Assembly: GCA_050260475.1 (NCBI GenBank)
Contig: JBLNCG010000028.1
Span: 64,283 to 128,282, forward strand
From: Bacillota bacterium
Lineage (GTDB): Bacteria; Bacillota; UBA4882; JBLNCG01
DNA: 64,000 nucleotides
Reading direction: 5' to 3'
The notes under the pieces are model-generated. The model ran no database searches and was not told the DNA's origin. It saw only the letters and a list, made by a program, of their open reading frames with translations. A program made the position numbers and the translations under genes. Below, piece by piece: positions 2,357 through 45,389 of the stretch (its first letter is position 1; each line of letters begins with the position of its first letter).

Positions 2357-3285
2357 TGTTTATGCCGGCAAACCTTTATAATAGTTTAAAAAAAGGCCTG
2401 GCCCGAACGGGACAGCATTTTTCCACCCAACTTTCCAGGATTTTCAGGGGGAAATCCCCGGTCAGCCGGGAAACATGGGATGAATTGGAAGCTGCGTTGA
2501 TCATGGCTGATCTGGGGGTTGATTATACCGGCTTATTGATTCAGCGGCTGAAAGCGCGCCTCAGGGAGGGGGATATCGTAGGCGCCGGGGATGTACGCGA
2601 GGCATTGTCCGGAATAATACTGGAGGATTGGCCTGATGTTGCACGGCCGTGGCCTCCGGACATCAAAACAATCATTTTTATACTAGGAGTCAATGGGGTT
2701 GGCAAAACCACCACCATCGGGAAACTTGCAGGCCAGCTTGTTTCTGCGGGAAAAAAAGTTTTAATAGCGGCGGGGGATACTTTTCGAGCTGCCGCCATCG
2801 ATCAGCTTGCCATCTGGGCTGAAAAGGCGGGCGCCGGTCTGGTTGCCCACCGTGAAGGCGCCGATCCCGGCGCGGTGGTGTACGATGCAGTTCATGCAGC
2901 CGATGCGCGCCGGGCGGACGTGCTTCTGGTGGATACCGCCGGACGTTTGCACAATAAGGTAAACTTGATGGAAGAATTGAAAAAAATGCACCGCATCGCC
3001 GTTAAGGAGGCCGGGGAATACCTGATCCAAAACTGGCTTGTGCTTGACGCCACCACCGGGCAGAACGCCCTGGCGCAGGCCGGGGCATTTCAGGCTGCGG
3101 TACGGCTCGATGGATTCGTTATGACTAAGCTGGATGGGACAGCCAAAGGGGGGATCGCCTTGGCAGTTTTGCATACTCTGAAAATTCCACTGCTTTTCGC
3201 AGGGATCGGCGAGGGGATGGAGGATCTGAAACCGGTTGAACCGGAGAACTTTATACGCGCCATCGCAGGAGAAGGGGGGCAATAA
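2353..3285 (+). CDS. ftsY: signal recognition particle receptor FtsY (short Firmicute form)
   Basis: SRP54-type GTPase motifs GVNGVGKTTT, DTAGR, TKLDG. ATG overlaps the smc stop (ATGA). Confidence 0.9.
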   Translation: MMFMPANLYNSLKKGLARTGQHFSTQLSRIFRGKSPVSRETWDELEAALIMADLGVDYTGLLIQRLKARLREGDIVGAGDVREALSGIILEDWPDVARPWPPDIKTIIFILGVNGVGKTTTIGKLAGQLVSAGKKVLIAAGDTFRAAAIDQLAIWAEKAGAGLVAHREGADPGAVVYDAVHAADARRADVLLVDTAGRLHNKVNLMEELKKMHRIAVKEAGEYLIQNWLVLDATTGQNALAQAGAFQAAVRLDGFVMTKLDGTAKGGIALAVLHTLKIPLLFAGIGEGMEDLKPVEPENFIRAIAGEGGQ

Positions 3286-3286
3286 A

Positions 3287-3898
3287 TTGCCGCAGATTAA
3301 AAAATCCAGGATACGGGAATGGCTTGAATTTTTTTCTCAAGTTTTCATCATCGCCCTGTTTGTTTTGATTTTCATCACGCAGCAATATATGGTCAAGGGG
3401 AGTTCCATGGAGTCCACCTTGCATCATGGCGATCGGCTGTTTGTGGACAAGCTGACCTATTATTTTTCCGCTCCGCAGCGCGGGGATATAGTTATCGTAA
3501 AGGATCAGCTTTCCGTACAGATCATTAAGCGCGTAATCGGGCTGCCCGGGGATTCCATTTATGCTAAAGACGGGCATCTGTTTGTCGATAATAATGAATA
3601 TATCGAACCTTATATAAATACGCCGTTCGATGATTTTGAATCGGTAAGAGTGGATCCTGACACGTATTTCGTACTCGGGGATAATCGGCCGTGCAGCAGC
3701 GACAGCCGCTTTATCGGGGCCGTCTCCCGAAAAAAAATCATCGGCAAGGCCTTTATCCGCATCTTTCCCTTTAATAAAATAGGATTGATCAAGCGGCCCC
3801 AATATAAGCCCCTTCCGAGGAAGGAGAATTCATACGGAGGTTATGGTTACAAAGACTATGGTTATCCCCCGGCGCATGATCCTTATTTCAAGCCTTAA
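3287..3898 (+). CDS. lepB: signal peptidase I (LepB/SipS family)
   Basis: Probable TTG start at 3287, 6 nt after AGGAGAAGGGGGG. N-terminal TM segment, catalytic SM(E/Q)PT and KR boxes, GDNR motif. Unusual Tyr/Gly-rich C-terminal tail. Confidence 0.8.
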   Translation: MPQIKKSRIREWLEFFSQVFIIALFVLIFITQQYMVKGSSMESTLHHGDRLFVDKLTYYFSAPQRGDIVIVKDQLSVQIIKRVIGLPGDSIYAKDGHLFVDNNEYIEPYINTPFDDFESVRVDPDTYFVLGDNRPCSSDSRFIGAVSRKKIIGKAFIRIFPFNKIGLIKRPQYKPLPRKENSYGGYGYKDYGYPPAHDPYFKP

Positions 3899-4019
3899 TA
3901 AACAGAACCGTGAATCCCGTTTGGGAATAAAAGCTGTATGTTGATTCACGTCAGCTTATTTTTATTACTTCGTTCGCTGACGTGAACGACTACTTGAAAA
4001 TTGCATAAAAGAACCGGGG

Positions 4020-4255
4020 CGCTTATTCTTGGAAGCTTAATAGGGAAACAGGTGCGATTCCTGTGCGGTCCCGCCACTGTAAGGGGGAGCCTCCTGGTAA
4101 ATGCCACTTTCCGTCACTATTGGCGCAGTATTCCAAGTGCCGGGGGGGAAGGCGCCAGGTGGACGAAGAACCCGAGTCAGGAGACCTGCCCCGGTTTCGC
4201 TGCGGCAAATGGGCCGCTGCACATCTCACAACCTACGGACGATAGGAGGGTGAAA
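4020..4255 (+). promoter_or_regulatory. cobalamin (AdoCbl) riboswitch aptamer
   Basis: Conserved core AATAGGGAA...GGTGCGATTCC...GCGGTCCCGCCACTGTAAGGGGGAG with the B12 box GCCACTG. Located in the leader of a TonB-dependent BtuB-like receptor gene. Confidence 0.85.
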
Positions 4256-4276: not shown

Positions 4277-4312
4277 TGATCCGGATCCGGGTTAAAGGCA
4301 TTTTTTATTAAA
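4277..4312 (+). terminator. riboswitch expression-platform intrinsic terminator
   Basis: GCCTTTGATCCGGATCCGGGTTAAAGGC stem (contains the palindrome CCGGATCCGG) followed by CATTTTTTATT. Confidence 0.6.
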
Positions 4313-4428
4313 GGCAATTGCGTTTTACCTTGATTCAAGGTCTTGCCATTAAATATAGTGTATGGCTACCATTAGGCTATCGATATTTCGCGGCAAGGCG
4401 TAAAATTATCACAACAACGCAAATTGCT
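4313..4428 (+). repeat. intergenic repeat family A, copy 1 (TIR-bounded, ~116 bp)
   Basis: AAGGCAATTGCGTT..TACC...GTCTTGCC...ATTAGGCTATCGATATTT...GGCAAGG...CAACAACGCAAATTGCT. Ends are inverted repeats of each other (GCAATTGCGTTGTTA / TAACAACGCAATTGC). An inner 7-bp inverted repeat GTCTTGC/GCAAGAC is also present. Four more copies occur in the window. Confidence 0.8.
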
Positions 4429-7876: not shown

Positions 7877-7905
7877 ATATCCTGTCAAGGGAAAATGCTT
7901 GACAA

Positions 7906-8019
7906 GGCAATTGCGTTGTTACCTTAATTCAAGTCTTGCACTTAAATATAATGTATAATTACTATTAGGCTATCGATATTTTAGCAAGACGTAAAATCAT
8001 CATAACAACGTATATTGCT
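7906..8019 (+). repeat. intergenic repeat family A, copy 2
   Basis: Same architecture as copy 1: AAGGCAATTGCGTTGTTACC...GTCTTGC...ATTAGGCTATCGATATTT...GCAAGAC...CATAACAACGTATATTGCTC. Confidence 0.8.
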
Positions 8020-8057
8020 CCTTGAAAGGATTTTTTCAACCGGGCCGGTGAAAAAAC

Positions 8058-12061: not shown

Positions 12062-12139
12062 GGGCATCTATTCGTGACGTATTTTTCCGGTATTCTTCTT
12101 TTAGGTTAACGAAACTTCGTCTTGACCGGGGGAAATAGC

Positions 12140-12715
12140 ATGTCGGAGTGGAAAAAAGCCCGTGTGGAACTTTATCCTAAATCATGTTTCCGGGAAAACC
12201 TGGAATCCATCGCAATTGCCATCACGTTTACTGTTTTTGTCATGATCTTTGTTTTACAAGCGTGCATGGTTGATGGGCATTCCATGGAGCCTACATTGCA
12301 CGATCGGGAAAGGTTATTTGTGGACAAGATAACCTATCAGATTCTTCCTTTGAAAACCGGCGATATCGTGGTTTTTCACCCTCCGCTGGAAACAAAAAAC
12401 CGCTTCATCAAAAGGGTGATAGGTACTCCCGGAAATTATGTGGAGATTAAAAACGGAGATGTATACATCAACGGGAAACCGCTTCATGAACCTTATCTGA
12501 AGGATCAGGATTTTTTACCCGGTAATTATGCATCGCAAGTAATTCCTGCGGATAAATATCTCGTGCTGGGGGATAACCGCAATAACAGCAACGACGGACG
12601 CTGGTTCGGCCTGATCGGGAAAAAAGCCATCGTGGGCAGGGCGGTATTTGTTTTTTGGCCCTTTTCAAGGATGGGATTTATTAAATATCCTCATTATTAT
12701 AGAACCGGTGATTAA
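12140..12715 (+). CDS. lepB: signal peptidase I (second copy)
   Basis: Catalytic SMEPT, KRVIG and GDNRNNS boxes with an N-terminal TM. Confidence 0.8.
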   Translation: MSEWKKARVELYPKSCFRENLESIAIAITFTVFVMIFVLQACMVDGHSMEPTLHDRERLFVDKITYQILPLKTGDIVVFHPPLETKNRFIKRVIGTPGNYVEIKNGDVYINGKPLHEPYLKDQDFLPGNYASQVIPADKYLVLGDNRNNSNDGRWFGLIGKKAIVGRAVFVFWPFSRMGFIKYPHYYRTGD

Positions 12716-12725
12716 ATGCATCTAA

Positions 12726-12823
12726 CCGTTTTGGAAAATCGCGATATCTCTAGGCCGTACCAATTAAGGTACGCTCGGCGTGCCTAAGTTAAGGCACGTT
12801 CCTTTAACGCGTTTTGCGATTGC
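12726..12823 (-). repeat. intergenic repeat family C, copy 1 (~98 bp, TIR-bounded)
   Basis: Ends ATCGCGATTTTCCAAAACGG / AACGCGTTTTGCGATTG are inverted repeats of each other. Two internal perfect hairpins: GTACC-aattaa-GGTAC and GTGCCT-aagtta-AGGCAC. The reverse complement aligns with copy 2 at 44713-44784. Confidence 0.7.
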
Positions 12824-13029
12824 TCAACTTTTACACTTTGATTTTAATGCAGCAAAATCAATATTTTAGGGATATTAAATTTGAAAAAATCGTTAAAAGA
12901 TCGTCTTTTCTTGTCCCGCAAGATCATTTGGATATTTTTCATTGCTGATTTTGATTTTTTTGTTTTGCATTGCAAGAACAGAAAGATATGACTTTGCGCC
13001 GGGCTAAATTGATATGCGAAATTTGAGTG
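12823..13029 (+). repeat. intergenic repeat family B, copy 1 (~207 bp)
   Basis: Starts CTCAACTTTT, ends CGAAATTTGAGTG (imperfect TIR). Contains the perfect 24-bp palindrome TTGATTTTAATGCAGCAAAATCAA (12838-12861) and a second palindrome TCTTGTCCCGCAAGA. Aligns with 16192-16349. Confidence 0.7.
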
Positions 13030-13073
13030 ATTGATAAGCTTAATTACAGGTTTAATAATATGTGCGGGAGGGG

Positions 13074-13925
13074 ATGTCGGTTAAGAGAATTCAATGGTTT
13101 CCCGGACATATGGCCAAGGCGTTCAGGGATTTTAAAAAAGTCTTCAGCCTAGTACACCTGATTGTGGAGGTAGCGGACGCACGTATTCCCATTACCAGCC
13201 GCAATCCGGAATTAGGGCATCTGGCTTCACACAAACCCCGCATTCTTCTTCTAAATAAAATGGATCTGGCGGATCCGCGCATCACTGTCCAATGGCATGA
13301 ATTTTGGGAAAAAGAGGGGATAAATGTTTTTCCTGTAAATGCCAGATTGCAGCAGGGTTTCCTGGAAGTTACGAGAAAGATCAAAACTCTGCAGGTTTCC
13401 AATCCTTCCCCCTTCAGACTGATGATTATCGGATTGCCCAATACCGGGAAATCGTCGGTTTTGAATAGTTTATGTAAAAACGGACGCTGTAAGACCGGGA
13501 ATAAGCCGGGGACAACCAGGGGAAAACAGTGGATCACCACGCCGTACGGGTGGGAACTTCTGGATACGCCGGGACTGATGCAACCTGGAGAGATGACGGC
13601 ACAAGCGGGCGTAAAACTGGCTGCAGCCGGCGTTATTCCTGATGATCTGCTGGGATTGGAAGAATTGGCCCTGGATCTGATTCGTGTTCTTAAGGAGAAG
13701 TATGCTTTAGGGGATCAAAAGGCGGTATGCCTCAATCAAGAGGCGGACGAATATGCAATTCTAAAGGGATTCGGCCTGAAGCAAGGATGTCTTGCAAAGC
13801 GGGGTGAAGTGGATTTGCACCGCACCGCGGGAATTTTTATGCGGGATTTTCGCAACGGAAGGCTGGGGCGGTTTACTCTCGAGTGGCCGCAGGACTTTTA
13901 TCCTTCAACAAGCGTAGAAAAATAA
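13074..13925 (+). CDS. rbgA: ribosome biogenesis GTPase A (RbgA/YlqF)
   Basis: IQWFPGHMAKA N-terminus. Circularly permuted GTPase motifs (LLNKMDL, GLPNTGKSS, DTPG). Confidence 0.85.
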   Translation: MSVKRIQWFPGHMAKAFRDFKKVFSLVHLIVEVADARIPITSRNPELGHLASHKPRILLLNKMDLADPRITVQWHEFWEKEGINVFPVNARLQQGFLEVTRKIKTLQVSNPSPFRLMIIGLPNTGKSSVLNSLCKNGRCKTGNKPGTTRGKQWITTPYGWELLDTPGLMQPGEMTAQAGVKLAAAGVIPDDLLGLEELALDLIRVLKEKYALGDQKAVCLNQEADEYAILKGFGLKQGCLAKRGEVDLHRTAGIFMRDFRNGRLGRFTLEWPQDFYPSTSVEK

Positions 13926-15256: not shown

Positions 15257-15937
15257 ATGCAAGAATCCGCATTACACAATTTATACAACCGGATGTTTCC
15301 GGGTTTAAAAACCAAACTTCACGAGGAGAAAAAACGCCTTCATCTGATGTTGAGTTATGAACGCCGCTGCCTCAGGAGGGGTTACTCCAAAGTGGCGGGG
15401 ATTGATGAGGCTGGCAGGGGCCCGCTGGCCGGCCCGGTGATAGCCGCGGCGGCGATTTTGCCTTCCGGCATCAAGCCATATGGCCTTAATGATTCCAAGC
15501 AAATGACCAAAGGACAACGGGAGTATCTGTACCAGCATCTGCTGGATTCCGGAGCTGCCATAGCATGGGCCGGTGTGGATGCGGAAGAAATCGATGTTCT
15601 CAACATTTACCGGGCTACCATAAAAGCCATGCGATTAGCGTTGGAAAAACTCATCCCTCAACCGGACTTTTTACTAATAGACGGAATGGGGATCGATCTG
15701 GGAATGCCTGGAGAGGCCATTGTAAAAGGAGATGCGAAATCGTTGTCCATTGCCGCGGCTTCTGTAGTGGCAAAAGTTGCCCGGGATCGGATTATGGAGG
15801 AATACGCCAGTGTTTATCCTGAATACGGTTTTGATAAACATAAAGGCTATCCGACCCCTGAACACTACCGTATCCTGCAAAAGCTGGGCCCTTGCAAAAT
15901 ACACCGGTTGTCTTTCCGGCTTAAGGAAAAGGCTTAA
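15257..15937 (+). CDS. rnhB: ribonuclease HII
   Basis: GIDEAGRGPLAGPV catalytic motif. Start chosen at ATG 15257 (GGGAAGGCGG RBS). The long upstream in-frame extension lacks homology. Confidence 0.85.
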   Translation: MQESALHNLYNRMFPGLKTKLHEEKKRLHLMLSYERRCLRRGYSKVAGIDEAGRGPLAGPVIAAAAILPSGIKPYGLNDSKQMTKGQREYLYQHLLDSGAAIAWAGVDAEEIDVLNIYRATIKAMRLALEKLIPQPDFLLIDGMGIDLGMPGEAIVKGDAKSLSIAAASVVAKVARDRIMEEYASVYPEYGFDKHKGYPTPEHYRILQKLGPCKIHRLSFRLKEKA

Positions 15938-15941
15938 ACAG

Positions 15942-16058
15942 GGCAATCTGCGTTGTTAAGATAATTTTACGCCTTGCCACGGAATATCGATAGCCTAATA
16001 GTAGCCATATACTATATTTACTGGCAAGACCTAGTATTAAGGTAAAAAAGCAATTGCC
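15942..16058 (-). repeat. intergenic repeat family A, copy 3 (inverted orientation)
   Basis: The reverse complement aligns along the full length with copies 1 and 2 (…AAGGCAATTGC…ATTAGGCTATCGATATT…CAACGCAGATTGCCC). Confidence 0.8.
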
Positions 16059-16162
16059 TTAACAGGTAAAACTTTAAACAAAAAAAAAGGGTATTAAGTT
16101 TTGGCAACAAACGCCGATTTTAAGATTAAGACCAGCCGAACGATCTATAACATCCCCCCCAT

Positions 16163-16191: not shown

Positions 16192-16349
16192 CTCAACTTT
16201 CGCACCTTGATTTTAATGCGGCAAAATCAATATTAAATTGAAAAAATCGTTAAAACATTCGTCTGTTCTTGTTACGCAAGATCATAATGTTTTGAATTTA
16301 TATTAATTGATATGATTTTGCTGCGCTCTAATCGTATACGAAAGTTGAG
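16192..16349 (+). repeat. intergenic repeat family B, copy 2 (~158 bp)
   Basis: CTCAACTTTCG...CGAAAGTTGAG 11-bp perfect TIRs. Contains the palindrome TTGATTTTAATGCGGCAAAATCAA (16207-16230) and TCTTGTTACGCAAGA. Confidence 0.75.
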
Positions 16350-17647: not shown

Positions 17648-17722
<75 letters not shown>

Positions 17723-23428: not shown

Positions 23429-23446
23429 ATGGTCGTTCACGCCAGC

Positions 23447-23499
23447 TATCGATATTTGGTGGCAAGACGTAAAATTATCATAACAACGCAAATTGCTCT
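23447..23499 (+). repeat. intergenic repeat family A, copy 4 (3' half only, truncated)
   Basis: GCTATCGATATTTGGTGGCAAGACGTAAAATTATCATAACAACGCAAATTGCTC matches the 3' ~55 bp of family A. The 5' arm is absent. Confidence 0.7.
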
Positions 23500-27317: not shown

Positions 27318-27364
27318 AGGGAAGAGCCGGGGTACTGTAGAACCGGTAATTTAATATATCTGAC

Positions 27365-27408
27365 GGATTTCGGAAATCCGGGACACTAAAACGCGTTTTC
27401 CGAAATTG
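27365..27408. repeat. minimal family C-like element / 10-bp-stem hairpin
   Basis: ATTTCGGAAA-(24 nt)-TTTCCGAAAT. Shares the 16-mer TTTCGGAAAACGCGTT (reverse complement) with family C copy 2. Confidence 0.5.
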
Positions 27409-27521
27409 GAATGGATCAGTTTAAGCGTCGGTCTAATGCGGTATAGAAAAGCAATCTTTGGATAAAATAAGCTTCGCAAGTATACTGATTTAATTTTAAT
27501 CCTAAAAGAGGTGCAAATATC

Positions 27522-27917: not shown

Positions 27918-28049
27918 CCGGCATCCACGGTTGATTTTGGGTTGCAAAATTAAATGATTCATTGATTCCCCTTGGGTTACATTTATGATTAAAATCGCAC
28001 CATTGACATGAGGATGTTTCTTTGATAAACTTGAATCATGAAATCCTTT

Positions 28050-28126
28050 AAACTAGCTCGGTGAGGCTAGGAAGGAAGAGCGTGGAATGAAACTTTCTTC
28101 GGACTGCACCGGGGAAAGTTTTTTTA
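28050..28126 (+). promoter_or_regulatory. PyrR-binding attenuator 1 (pyrR leader)
   Basis: PyrR box AGCTCGGTGAGGCTAGG, then terminator hairpin AAACTTTC...GAAAGTTTTTTT. Confidence 0.6.
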
Positions 28127-28145
28127 TGACCCGCTATCCTGATAA

Positions 28146-28718
<573 letters not shown>

Positions 28719-28719
28719 A

Positions 28720-28798
28720 CCGGTCCAGCGAGGCCGGGAAGGGGCGGCGGGAAAAAATTTCCTTACGCTCCTTCGAAATATGAGAAGGAGCTTTTTTA
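28720..28798 (+). promoter_or_regulatory. PyrR-binding attenuator 2 (pyrB leader)
   Basis: PyrR box GGTCCAGCGAGGCC, then terminator CTCCTTC-gaaatatga-GAAGGAG-CTTTTTTATT. Confidence 0.65.
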
Positions 28799-28996
28799 TT
28801 AGCCGGTGATGAAACTTTTAGTTTCCGGCACTCAACTCTAAATGAACGATTATAGCGCATTTATAACAAATATTTAAGGTTGATTGCCGGACGGTTAGAT
28901 GGATTTAATCGCCGTTTTATATCAGGAGCCATTTGCCATGAGCCTCCTGGAGGCGGCAAATAGGAAATCAGGGAAACGGTATAGAAAAAAGGTGGG

Positions 28997-41050: not shown

Positions 41051-41118
41051 TCCTCAAAGCAAAGATCAAAATTGATAAGTTTAATCACTGCTTTTACAAC
41101 TGCCGTCTTCCAAGAAAA

Positions 41119-44681: not shown

Positions 44682-44712
44682 TCACCTAAACCGGGGATTT
44701 AACTTGGCAAAT

Positions 44713-44784
44713 GATTTCGGAAAACGCGTTAAAGGAGCGTGCCTTAACTTAAGCATGGCAGGTTTCGCGATTCTCCGAAATCGG
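44713..44784 (+). repeat. intergenic repeat family C, copy 2 (~72 bp)
   Basis: GATTTCGGAAAACGCGTT...GTGCCTTAACTTAAGCATGGC...TTTCGCGATTCTCCGAAATCGG. Ends form ~17-bp inverted repeats. Aligns with the reverse complement of 12726-12823. Confidence 0.7.
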
Positions 44785-44982
44785 CAGATGTAGGTTCTCA
44801 TAGAAGCGTTGTGATAAGTCGAACTTACCCACGTTTTCCCCTCTCTTCTGCAGAATAAAGGGAGATAGCAAGGCTTCAAAGGTTCAGGGTTACCCTCTTT
44901 ACAAAAGAGATAGTAAGGGTGAGTTTTTTACAGCGCTTATAGAGTGAACCCGGTAAGAACTGATTTGCAGGGAGGGTTATTA

Positions 44983-45180: not shown

Positions 45181-45237
45181 TTGCCGAAAGCTTTCTTTAA
45201 ATCGCCGTCAGGATATTCGGCAAATGCGCTTATAAGC

Positions 45238-45358
45238 AGAGCAATTTGCATTGTCATTATAATATTACGTCTTGCCGTAAATATCGATAGTCTAATGGCA
45301 GGCCGTACACTATATTTAATGGCACGACCCAGCATTAAAGTAACAACGCAATTGCCTT
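45238..45358 (-). repeat. intergenic repeat family A, copy 5 (inverted orientation)
   Basis: The reverse complement aligns full-length with copy 1 (AAGGCAATTGCGTTGTTAC...CCATTAAATATAGTGTA...CATTAGACTATCGATATTT...GGCAAGACG...CAAATTGCTCTGC). Confidence 0.8.
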
Positions 45359-45389
45359 AAGCAAAAAACATACCGCACTATCTTGGCAG

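Follow-up and report, generated by a model that had tools for sequence, protein, structure and literature searches.

The bcr1-type repeats of the Bacillus cereus group, in Bacillota, are MITE-like elements of ~150 bp that are intergenic, carry terminal inverted repeats (TIRs), and are transcribed within neighbouring mRNAs. Insertion at TA is the behaviour of bacterial MITEs derived from IS630/Tc1-mariner. In general, bacterial MITEs are non-coding, A+T-rich sequences of <200 bp with TIRs, 5'-TA-3' termini, and long stem-loop transcripts (PMC2229807). Correia elements come in two lengths, 107 and 155 bp, distinguished by an internal block, and the RUP element of pneumococcus is an intergenic sequence of ~107 bp with stop codons in all frames and TIRs that inserts at TA and, based on TIR identity, is thought to be mobilised by IS630-Spn1 (PMC2229807). 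REPINs are extragenic, hairpin-forming elements of ~100 nt composed of two inverted conserved units and a spacer (PMC3116915).

The window, which is the whole 64-kb stretch of DNA analysed here, contains three loci (C1, C2, and C3) described in an earlier note as a dispersed intergenic family with inverted-repeat ends. These loci are genuine members of a small, dispersed family of intergenic, hairpin-forming repeats. Together with a further element, R4, and a probable solo arm, R5, they most likely constitute one lineage-restricted family of miniature non-coding foldbacks of ~100-120 nt, with four elements and one solo arm known in the window. The family now has corrected boundaries, two added loci (R4 and R5), and a defined arm structure, with the following features:

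12700..12743, plus strand: C1 alpha arm, with its terminal TA at 12700-12701, outer module GAACCGGTGATTAAATGCATCTAACC, and inner module GTTTTGGAAAATCGCG (12728-12743); leave-one-out nhmmer E 1.9e-6.
12756..12798, no strand assigned: C1 interior with two similar hairpins, defined by sequence and fold; the second hairpin is common to C2.
12781..12822, minus strand: C1 segment homologous to C2 (12781-12819, 39 nt, 92%), ending in a diverged inner module CGCGTTTTGCGATTG (12808-12822).
13024..13054, minus strand: candidate displaced beta arm in the lepB/rbgA spacer, reading TA followed by AACCTGTAATTAAGCTTATCAATCAC...; alignment with the C3 beta arm, p = 0.003.
27338..27435, plus strand: C3 as redefined, a 98-nt TA-to-TA foldback with an alpha arm at 27338-27380, a 9-nt spacer, and a beta arm at 27390-27435.
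28800..28919, plus strand: R4, 120 nt, with a beta arm at 28800-28842, an alpha arm at 28877-28919 (minus strand), and an unrelated AT-rich interior.
41071..41096, minus strand: R5, a probable solo beta-type arm reading TA followed by AAAGCAGTGATTAAACTTATCAAT; best non-training nhmmer match in most leave-one-out models (E 0.06-0.5).
44687..44802, plus strand: C2 as redefined, a 116-nt TA-to-TA element with a beta arm at 44687-44728 (inner module GATTTCGGAAAACGCG), a core hairpin at 44738-44757, and an alpha-type arm at 44766-44802.

Formal alignment of the three loci finds extended similarity and upholds the family. Positions 12781-12819 of C1, taken in inverted orientation, align with 44717-44755 of C2 over 39 nt (92% identity, E 2.5e-8), and identity rises to 97% in the central 31 nt (E 1e-9). 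C1 and C3 have 41 nt in common (TAGAACCGGTGATTAAATGCATCTAACCGTTTTGGAAAATC vs TAGAACCGGTAATTTAATATATCTGACGGATTTCGGAAATC; repeat finder, local alignment). C2 and C3 share the exact 17-mer ATTTCGGAAAACGCGTT (44714-44730 on the plus strand and 27390-27406 on the minus strand), and in the reverse complement of C3 the other end also aligns with C2 (CCCGGATT-TCCGAAATC vs TCGCGATTCTCCGAAATC). A 16-mer said to be present in all copies is not found in C1, which reads AATCGCAAAACGCGTT, with 3 mismatches. The inversion of C1 relative to C2 is absent from the original description.

The cores from which the family was first recognised read CCGTTTTGGAAAATCGCG, two hairpins, and CGCGTTTTGCGATTG in C1 (12726-12823), GATTTCGGAAAACGCG-TTAAAGGAG-CGTGCCTTAACTTAAGCATG-GCAGGTTT-CGCGATTCTCCGAAATC in C2 (44713-44782), and GGATTTCGGAAATCC-GGGACACT-AAAACGCGTTTTCCGAAAT in C3 (27365-27406). 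Their ends had been taken as inverted repeats of each other, which holds for C2, where GATTTCGGAAAACGCG (44713-44728) and CGCGATTCTCCGAAATC (44766-44782) form a 16/17 stem (p = 0.004), and for C3, where ATTTCGGAAA/TTTCCGAAAT form a stem of 10-11 bp in agreement with the 10 bp first reported, but not for C1, where the diverged ends GTTTTGGAAAATCGCG and CGCGTTTTGCGATTG pair over ~9 bp with a bulge and a mismatch. The additional perfect hairpin noted in C1 is present (cGTACC-aattaa-GGTACg, 12756-12773). The second C1 hairpin (CGTGCCT-aagtt-AGGCACG, 12779-12798) is shared with C2 as claimed, but it is perfect only in C1; the C2 version contains one mismatch and one G-T pair and differs from C1 by two uncompensated transitions.

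As first drawn, the boundaries and TIRs of the elements were too narrow. The named ends are sub-terminal, and the true termini lie ~28 nt further out, after TA. Each element consists of two inverted arms of ~45 nt that enclose an interior, and each arm is ordered as TA, an outer module, a short variable stretch, and an inner module. The outer module reads TA followed by GAACCGGTGATTAAAT.CATCTAAC, with the consensus (G/A)AACCGG(T/G)GATTAAA(T/C)... over ~28 nt, while the inner module reads (G)ATTTCGGAAAA(T)CGCG. The variable stretch between the modules separates alpha from beta ends. Beta arms are more diverged, read TA(A/G)ACCGG(T/G)GAT(T/G)AAAC(T)T..., and lie opposite an alpha arm at the left of C2, the right of C3, and the left of R4. 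The alpha-type arm of C2 has a deletion of ~10 nt in its outer module, and the outer parts of the partner arms of C2 and C3 have diverged.

The interior is exchangeable: it is lacking in C3, comprises one hairpin in C2 and two in C1, and is unrelated AT-rich DNA in R4. The size variants thus differ by internal segments, as the earlier note had it, but its ordering of them as full, internally deleted, and solo-end copies is an assumption, and C1 could have gained its second, similar hairpin unit instead of C2 having lost one. C3 is not a solo end; it has two complete arms around its 9-nt spacer. Nor is C1 a clean full copy: it lacks a second outer arm, or has had that arm displaced by family D, a different repeat that begins at position 12823.

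At least two other short intergenic repeat families occur in the window. Family A consists of foldbacks of ~125 nt at five loci. Family D occupies 12823-12927, where it adjoins C1 at 12823, and is similar to 16192-16285. The candidate second arm of C1 at 13024-13054 is separated from the C1 core by family D. This candidate is not recovered window-wide by leave-one-out models, and its identification as the displaced arm of C1 is weak.

Leave-one-out nhmmer models recover the alpha arms of C1 (E 1.9e-6), C3 (E 2.5e-3), and R4 (E 0.019), and the left (beta) arm of C2 is the best non-training match (E 0.076). The outer module also recurs in inverted orientation at the R4 locus (28891-28922, 32 nt in common), and the two arms of R4 align with each other over 43 nt (p < 0.001). 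With models built from the outer module only and run window-wide, the left arm of C2 scores E 2.1-3.1, and the right arm of C3, the left arm of R4, and the right arm of C2 are not recovered; these three assignments rest on predicted position and cross-comparison and are accordingly putative. The outer module was also considered as a perfectly symmetric TIR, and this description was rejected on the same three missed arms. Because a symmetric TIR fails the leave-one-out comparison, two end types are described here and the weaker arms are flagged. The outer-module pattern AACCGGNGATTWAAY has 4 matches in the window at <=1 mismatch, all at family loci, and 53 matches at <=3 mismatches against 25 +/- 5 expected.

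An alternative explanation is that there is no family beyond C1 and C2, with the 17-mer of C3 and the outer-module likeness arising by chance or low complexity, or through artefacts of metagenome-assembled genome (MAG) assembly. Exact repeated 17-mers in the window are confined to this family, families A and D, and an internal duplication in carB; yet a repeated 17-mer is not rare, arising in 3/20 shuffles, and by itself the C2/C3 17-mer is weak evidence. The arms missed window-wide by the leave-one-out models also speak for chance. Against it stand the 41 nt common to C1 and C3, the 32 nt at R4, the leave-one-out E-values of 1e-6 to 1e-2, and the location of the 17-mer exactly where the model predicts it, together with a second matching end. 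The combined evidence is strong, and the ensemble is not chance.

A short-read assembly of the same sample also speaks against the artefact reading. Each of the three Logan contigs compared, which come from the single run SRR24035587, matches the window at 100% identity. One 46-kb contig passes straight through C3, R4, and C2, so that these three elements are reproduced in an independent assembly. In contrast, the core of C1 (12779-12962) falls outside the retrieved contigs, which leaves some room for an artefact at that locus; overall, chance or artefact is a very improbable explanation. Logan contigs end at 7910 in family A, at 12778 inside C1, and at 16219 in family D, and one starts at 12963. 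Since C1 and C2 have no exact 31-mer in common, the break inside C1 probably reflects further C1-like copies elsewhere, and the assembly breaks are consistent with additional near-identical copies in the genome.

The elements are 98-120 nt long, have no coding capacity, and have a GC content of 36-46%, compared with 47.8% for the whole window. Open reading frames over them are limited to C2, which is crossed by spurious frames of 40-65 aa. C2, C3, and R4 each fold end to end into one long hairpin from the TA-proximal bases. Predicted folding energies are -34.5 kcal/mol for R4 (z -3.75, 0/200 shuffles as good), -37.6 kcal/mol for C2 (z -3.31, 1/200 shuffles as good), and -25.2 kcal/mol for C3 (z -1.55).

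All elements are intergenic, and all except R5 lie between plus-strand genes. The flanking genes are as first stated, namely Peptidase_S26/RbgA at C1, GH10/DUF4342 at C3, and guanylate kinase/RpoZ at C2; Pfam identifies Peptidase_S26, Glyco_hydro_10, DUF4342, and RNA_pol_Rpb6, RbgA is confirmed by homology, and guanylate kinase and RemA are confirmed by gene calls on the independent contig. R4 lies between the PyrR attenuator and pyrB and starts just past the T-run of the attenuator, while R5 lies between the stop codon of an htrA-like protease gene and the start of an ECF sigma factor gene. C3 starts 21 nt and C2 starts 6 nt 3' of a stop codon. At C1, the arm that begins at 12700 covers the last 4-5 codons of lepB (AGA ACC GGT GAT) and the TAA at 12713-12715, so that the gene draws its final four codons and its stop from the repeat; the lepB end at 12715 is also found in the Logan gene call. 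The elements inflate spacers within otherwise compact housekeeping clusters.

A second alternative is selection by the host, which would keep the elements whatever their origin, either as stem-loops in 3'-UTRs or between cistrons with a role in mRNA stability or processing, or as palindromic operators for a DNA-binding protein. Three of the four elements start within ~20 nt of an upstream stop codon or overlap one, their folds are strong, and there is a loose likeness between the inner module and AT-rich palindromic operators. In other bacteria, transcripts of MITEs are known to affect the fate of mRNA (PMC2229807). However, orientation relative to transcription is split 2:2: the upstream arm is of the alpha type in C1 and C3 but of the beta type in C2 and R4, which favours a DNA-level element over a strand-specific RNA. 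The interiors differ wholly among copies, and the two substitutions in the shared hairpin of C2 weaken its stem. Together with the exchange of interiors, the lack of a fixed orientation and of compensation for the stem mutations argues against a selected strand-specific RNA, and the neighbouring genes are functionally unrelated.

Rfam 15 gives no match at C1, C2, or C3 at the gathering threshold, and at E up to 5 it returns only scattered eukaryotic snoRNA/miRNA noise. No terminator-like site with a U-tract was found in or beside C1, C2, C3, or R4, and promoter-like sites show no excess at the elements; intrinsic terminator and promoter functions were ruled out on these grounds. A TTGATA-17-AATAAT site at 13031-13059 is a candidate to drive rbgA. 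Selection by the host is thus quite unlikely as an account of the family. The inner module was also compared by eye with CodY-box, cre, and Spo0A-box operators and rejected as a member of these classes, its likeness being limited to TTTC.GAAA-type cores, with ~8/15 positions for CodY.

The family is instead best read, at slightly better than even confidence, as MITE-like non-autonomous DNA transposons, or relics of them, of the Correia/RUP type. TA lies directly outside the left arm of C1 and both arms of C3, R4, and C2, as well as the candidate second arm of C1 (C1R2) and R5. This regularity of the termini points to DDE transposases of the IS630/Tc1-mariner type, which target TA, as has been proposed for RUP. 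No copy is flanked by a direct repeat longer than TA, and the repeat itself could simply start with TA, in which case the dinucleotide would not be a target duplication.

In the proposed mechanism, the elements would be non-autonomous, with their terminal inverted repeats recognised by a transposase from another part of the genome. Insertion would target TA dinucleotides, and the surviving copies would be those that do little harm, in AT-rich spacers just 3' of stop codons. Read-through transcripts would contain the long stem-loop. No transposase was found among the annotated genes of the 64-kb window. Nor did the 4-5 available loci show an empty site, an insertion polymorphism, or a cognate IS. 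Two minus-strand ORFs of 394 aa were considered as transposase candidates and rejected, as they encode a PQQ-like beta-propeller protein and an HtrA-type protease.

A third alternative is that the arms are REP-type units and the elements inverted doublets of them, mobilised or maintained as in REPINs by a single-copy Y1 (RAYT/IS200-like) transposase that acts on single-stranded hairpins and leaves no target duplication. The elements match the published REPIN layout in being inverted doublets with a variable spacer that are extragenic, ~100 nt long, and hairpin-forming (PMC3116915). In some arms, such as the alpha arm of C3 (GGATTTC-G-GAAATCC), the inner module forms a small palindrome by itself, and the two tandem similar hairpins in the C1 interior recall REP clusters. 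Elsewhere, however, the inner module is only imperfectly palindromic, and most arms are unconvincing as lone palindromes, since the outer module folds to a 4-bp stem only (RNAfold). The heterogeneous interiors and the TA at all termini, as expected of DDE-type MITEs, also speak against this reading, and none of the window's annotated genes was recognised as a Y1/RAYT gene. RAYT systems have been described mainly outside Bacillota. A REP/REPIN-like origin is therefore unlikely.

The same low probability is given to a more specific version, a Bacillota counterpart of REPINs in which vertically persisting inverted doublets with modular hairpin cargo would depend on a single domesticated transposase. 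If it were true, the family would amount, together with families A and D, to approximately one locus per 5 kb in a deep-branching, otherwise unsampled lineage of Bacillota, and to one of the densest bacterial short-repeat loads known.

For the preferred MITE-like family, copies diverge by ~8-40%, so any activity may be ancient. The single sample SRR24035587 carries the organism, and the next-best RbgA among 5.8 billion proteins is 46% identical, which indicates that the lineage is isolated; by sequence comparison, the host is an isolated uncultured member of Bacillota. The locus of its nearest relative has in common only rbgA and a convergent LPG-synthase gene, the upstream region is not syntenic, and no family member occurs in the 21 kb around rbgA.

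Searches of wider collections recovered no relatives of the family. The pattern TCGSAAAACGCGTTWWAG, which fits all three copies, gave 79 single chance matches in 596 Gb of genomes, against an estimated ~140 chance matches, and none of them extends past 16-23 nt; this collection is evidently without the source genome. The C1/C2 core ACGCGTTAAAGGANCGTGCC has 0 matches in JGI metagenome contigs, and the gapped TIR pattern TTTCGGAAAACGCGN{16,46}TCCGAAAT has 11 matches in JGI metagenomes, all in unrelated coding sequence. In viral contigs, the 18-mer and two outer-arm patterns gave chance matches only, and blastn of C1 and C2 against plasmids gave no match.

If confirmed genome-wide, these findings would establish an undescribed MITE-like family with defined true boundaries in a lineage without close sequenced relatives. 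The family would account for the short-read assembly breaks at these sites, for the inflated spacers in rplS-lepB-rbgA, gmk-rpoZ, and pyrR-pyrB, and for the odd C-terminus of lepB, and its copies would be useful as strain-typing markers. The TIR sequence, TA followed by GAACCGGTGATTAAA, could serve as bait for the responsible transposase. The family does not open a new mechanism.

The family is not known to be related in sequence to bcr1-type repeats and belongs to another host clade, and the target duplication reported for bcr1 is different. It resembles REPINs in its inverted unit pairs and in its clustering and nesting with other repeats (PMC3116915). Unlike in REPINs, the imperfect palindromic core of REP units is only partly present in its arms, and TA termini are not a REPIN feature. 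REPINs are also tied to a flanking RAYT gene, whereas none was noticed in the 64-kb window.

The likeness to the Correia/NEMIS elements of Neisseria includes a length of ~100-155 bp, the lack of coding sequence, TIRs, 5'-TA-3' termini, variation in size through an internal block, transcripts that fold, or here would fold, into long stem-loops, and intergenic positions at times fused to gene ends (PMC2229807). The present family is found in another phylum, however, and its arms are longer (~45 nt) and composite, with alpha and beta ends. It is not known to have any sequence relationship to the Correia TIR. RUP comes from the same phylum as the host and shares its ~107-bp scale, intergenic location, TIRs, and TA; RUP copies are highly conserved, whereas those described here are diverged and have heterogeneous interiors. 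Most likely, then, this is a previously undescribed, lineage-specific MITE-like family, but an ordinary kind of element.

C1, a probable MITE-like foldback element, lies in the spacer between lepB and rbgA. Its alpha arm, one of the two inverted-arm types (~45 nt) of C-family elements, encodes the final four lepB codons (R-T-G-D) and the TAA stop (12698-12715), and the repeat appears to have replaced the native C-terminus and stop of this gene. The window holds two signal-peptidase I paralogues (3236-3898 and 12122-12715), which share 75% DNA identity over 72 nt (3389-3460 vs 12266-12337). At the other end of the spacer, a promoter-like site (TTGATA-17-AATAAT, 10/12) occupies 13031-13059, within the candidate displaced beta arm and a short way ahead of the ribosome-binding site of rbgA. 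Promoter-like sites in the region are no more numerous than shuffled sequence would predict.

The inner end of C1 directly adjoins one copy of a second repeat, family D, which is ~100 nt long, has 79% identity between its copies, and contains the palindrome TTGATTTTAATGC.GCAAAATCAA. Family D may be a mobile element, an sRNA or an operator.

Family D copies in the window
12823-12927, adjoining the C1 inner end
16192-16285, after a terminator, between convergent genes

In the Logan contigs, an independent short-read assembly of run SRR24035587, sequence breaks off at 16219, in family D, and a contig starts again at 12963. The ends of two Logan contigs also fall at or near copies of family A, a foldback repeat of ~125 nt that is separate from the C family. 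Its arms are ~40 nt long (AAGGCAATTGCGTTGTTAC...GTCTTGCCA), and its copies, four full and one half, all lie in intergenic spacers of the window and show 77-92% identity. TTAA/TA is present at the flanks of some copies.

Family A copies in the window
4301-4428, full copy
7904-8020, full copy
15935-16062, full copy
45233-45368, full copy
23445-23499, half copy

RemA and Gmk are both called, with unchanged lengths, on Logan contig SRR24035587_1648. Exact-protein records lack both proteins, and a missing record is therefore no evidence of absence.

Judged by sequence comparison, the organism is very isolated. The top non-self homologue of RbgA (13062-13925) among 5.8 billion proteins searched is 46% identical, and contigs matching the window came from a single sequencing run, SRR24035587. 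In the nearest relative, GCA_046128175.1, the sequence TTAAACCGGGGATTAAAG occurs just past a stop codon (L097, 7395-7412) and has a 13-mer in common with the beta arm of C2, the C-family element at 44687-44802 (blastn-short E 0.074; nhmmer E 1.6). This likeness is probably due to chance, because no partner arm is present for that site in GCA_046128175.1.

The window also contains an ordinary tRNA-Arg(CCG) gene (17648-17722) and an ordinary cobalamin riboswitch (4000-4207, 106.5 bits) upstream of a 606-aa ORF. R4, the fourth C-family element, is located between the second of two predicted PyrR attenuators and the start of pyrB.

Predicted PyrR binding-site matches (Rfam)
28041-28127, upstream of pyrR
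28708-28799, upstream of pyrB

These two matches score 51.1 and 52.5 bits, just under the Rfam gathering score of 54.
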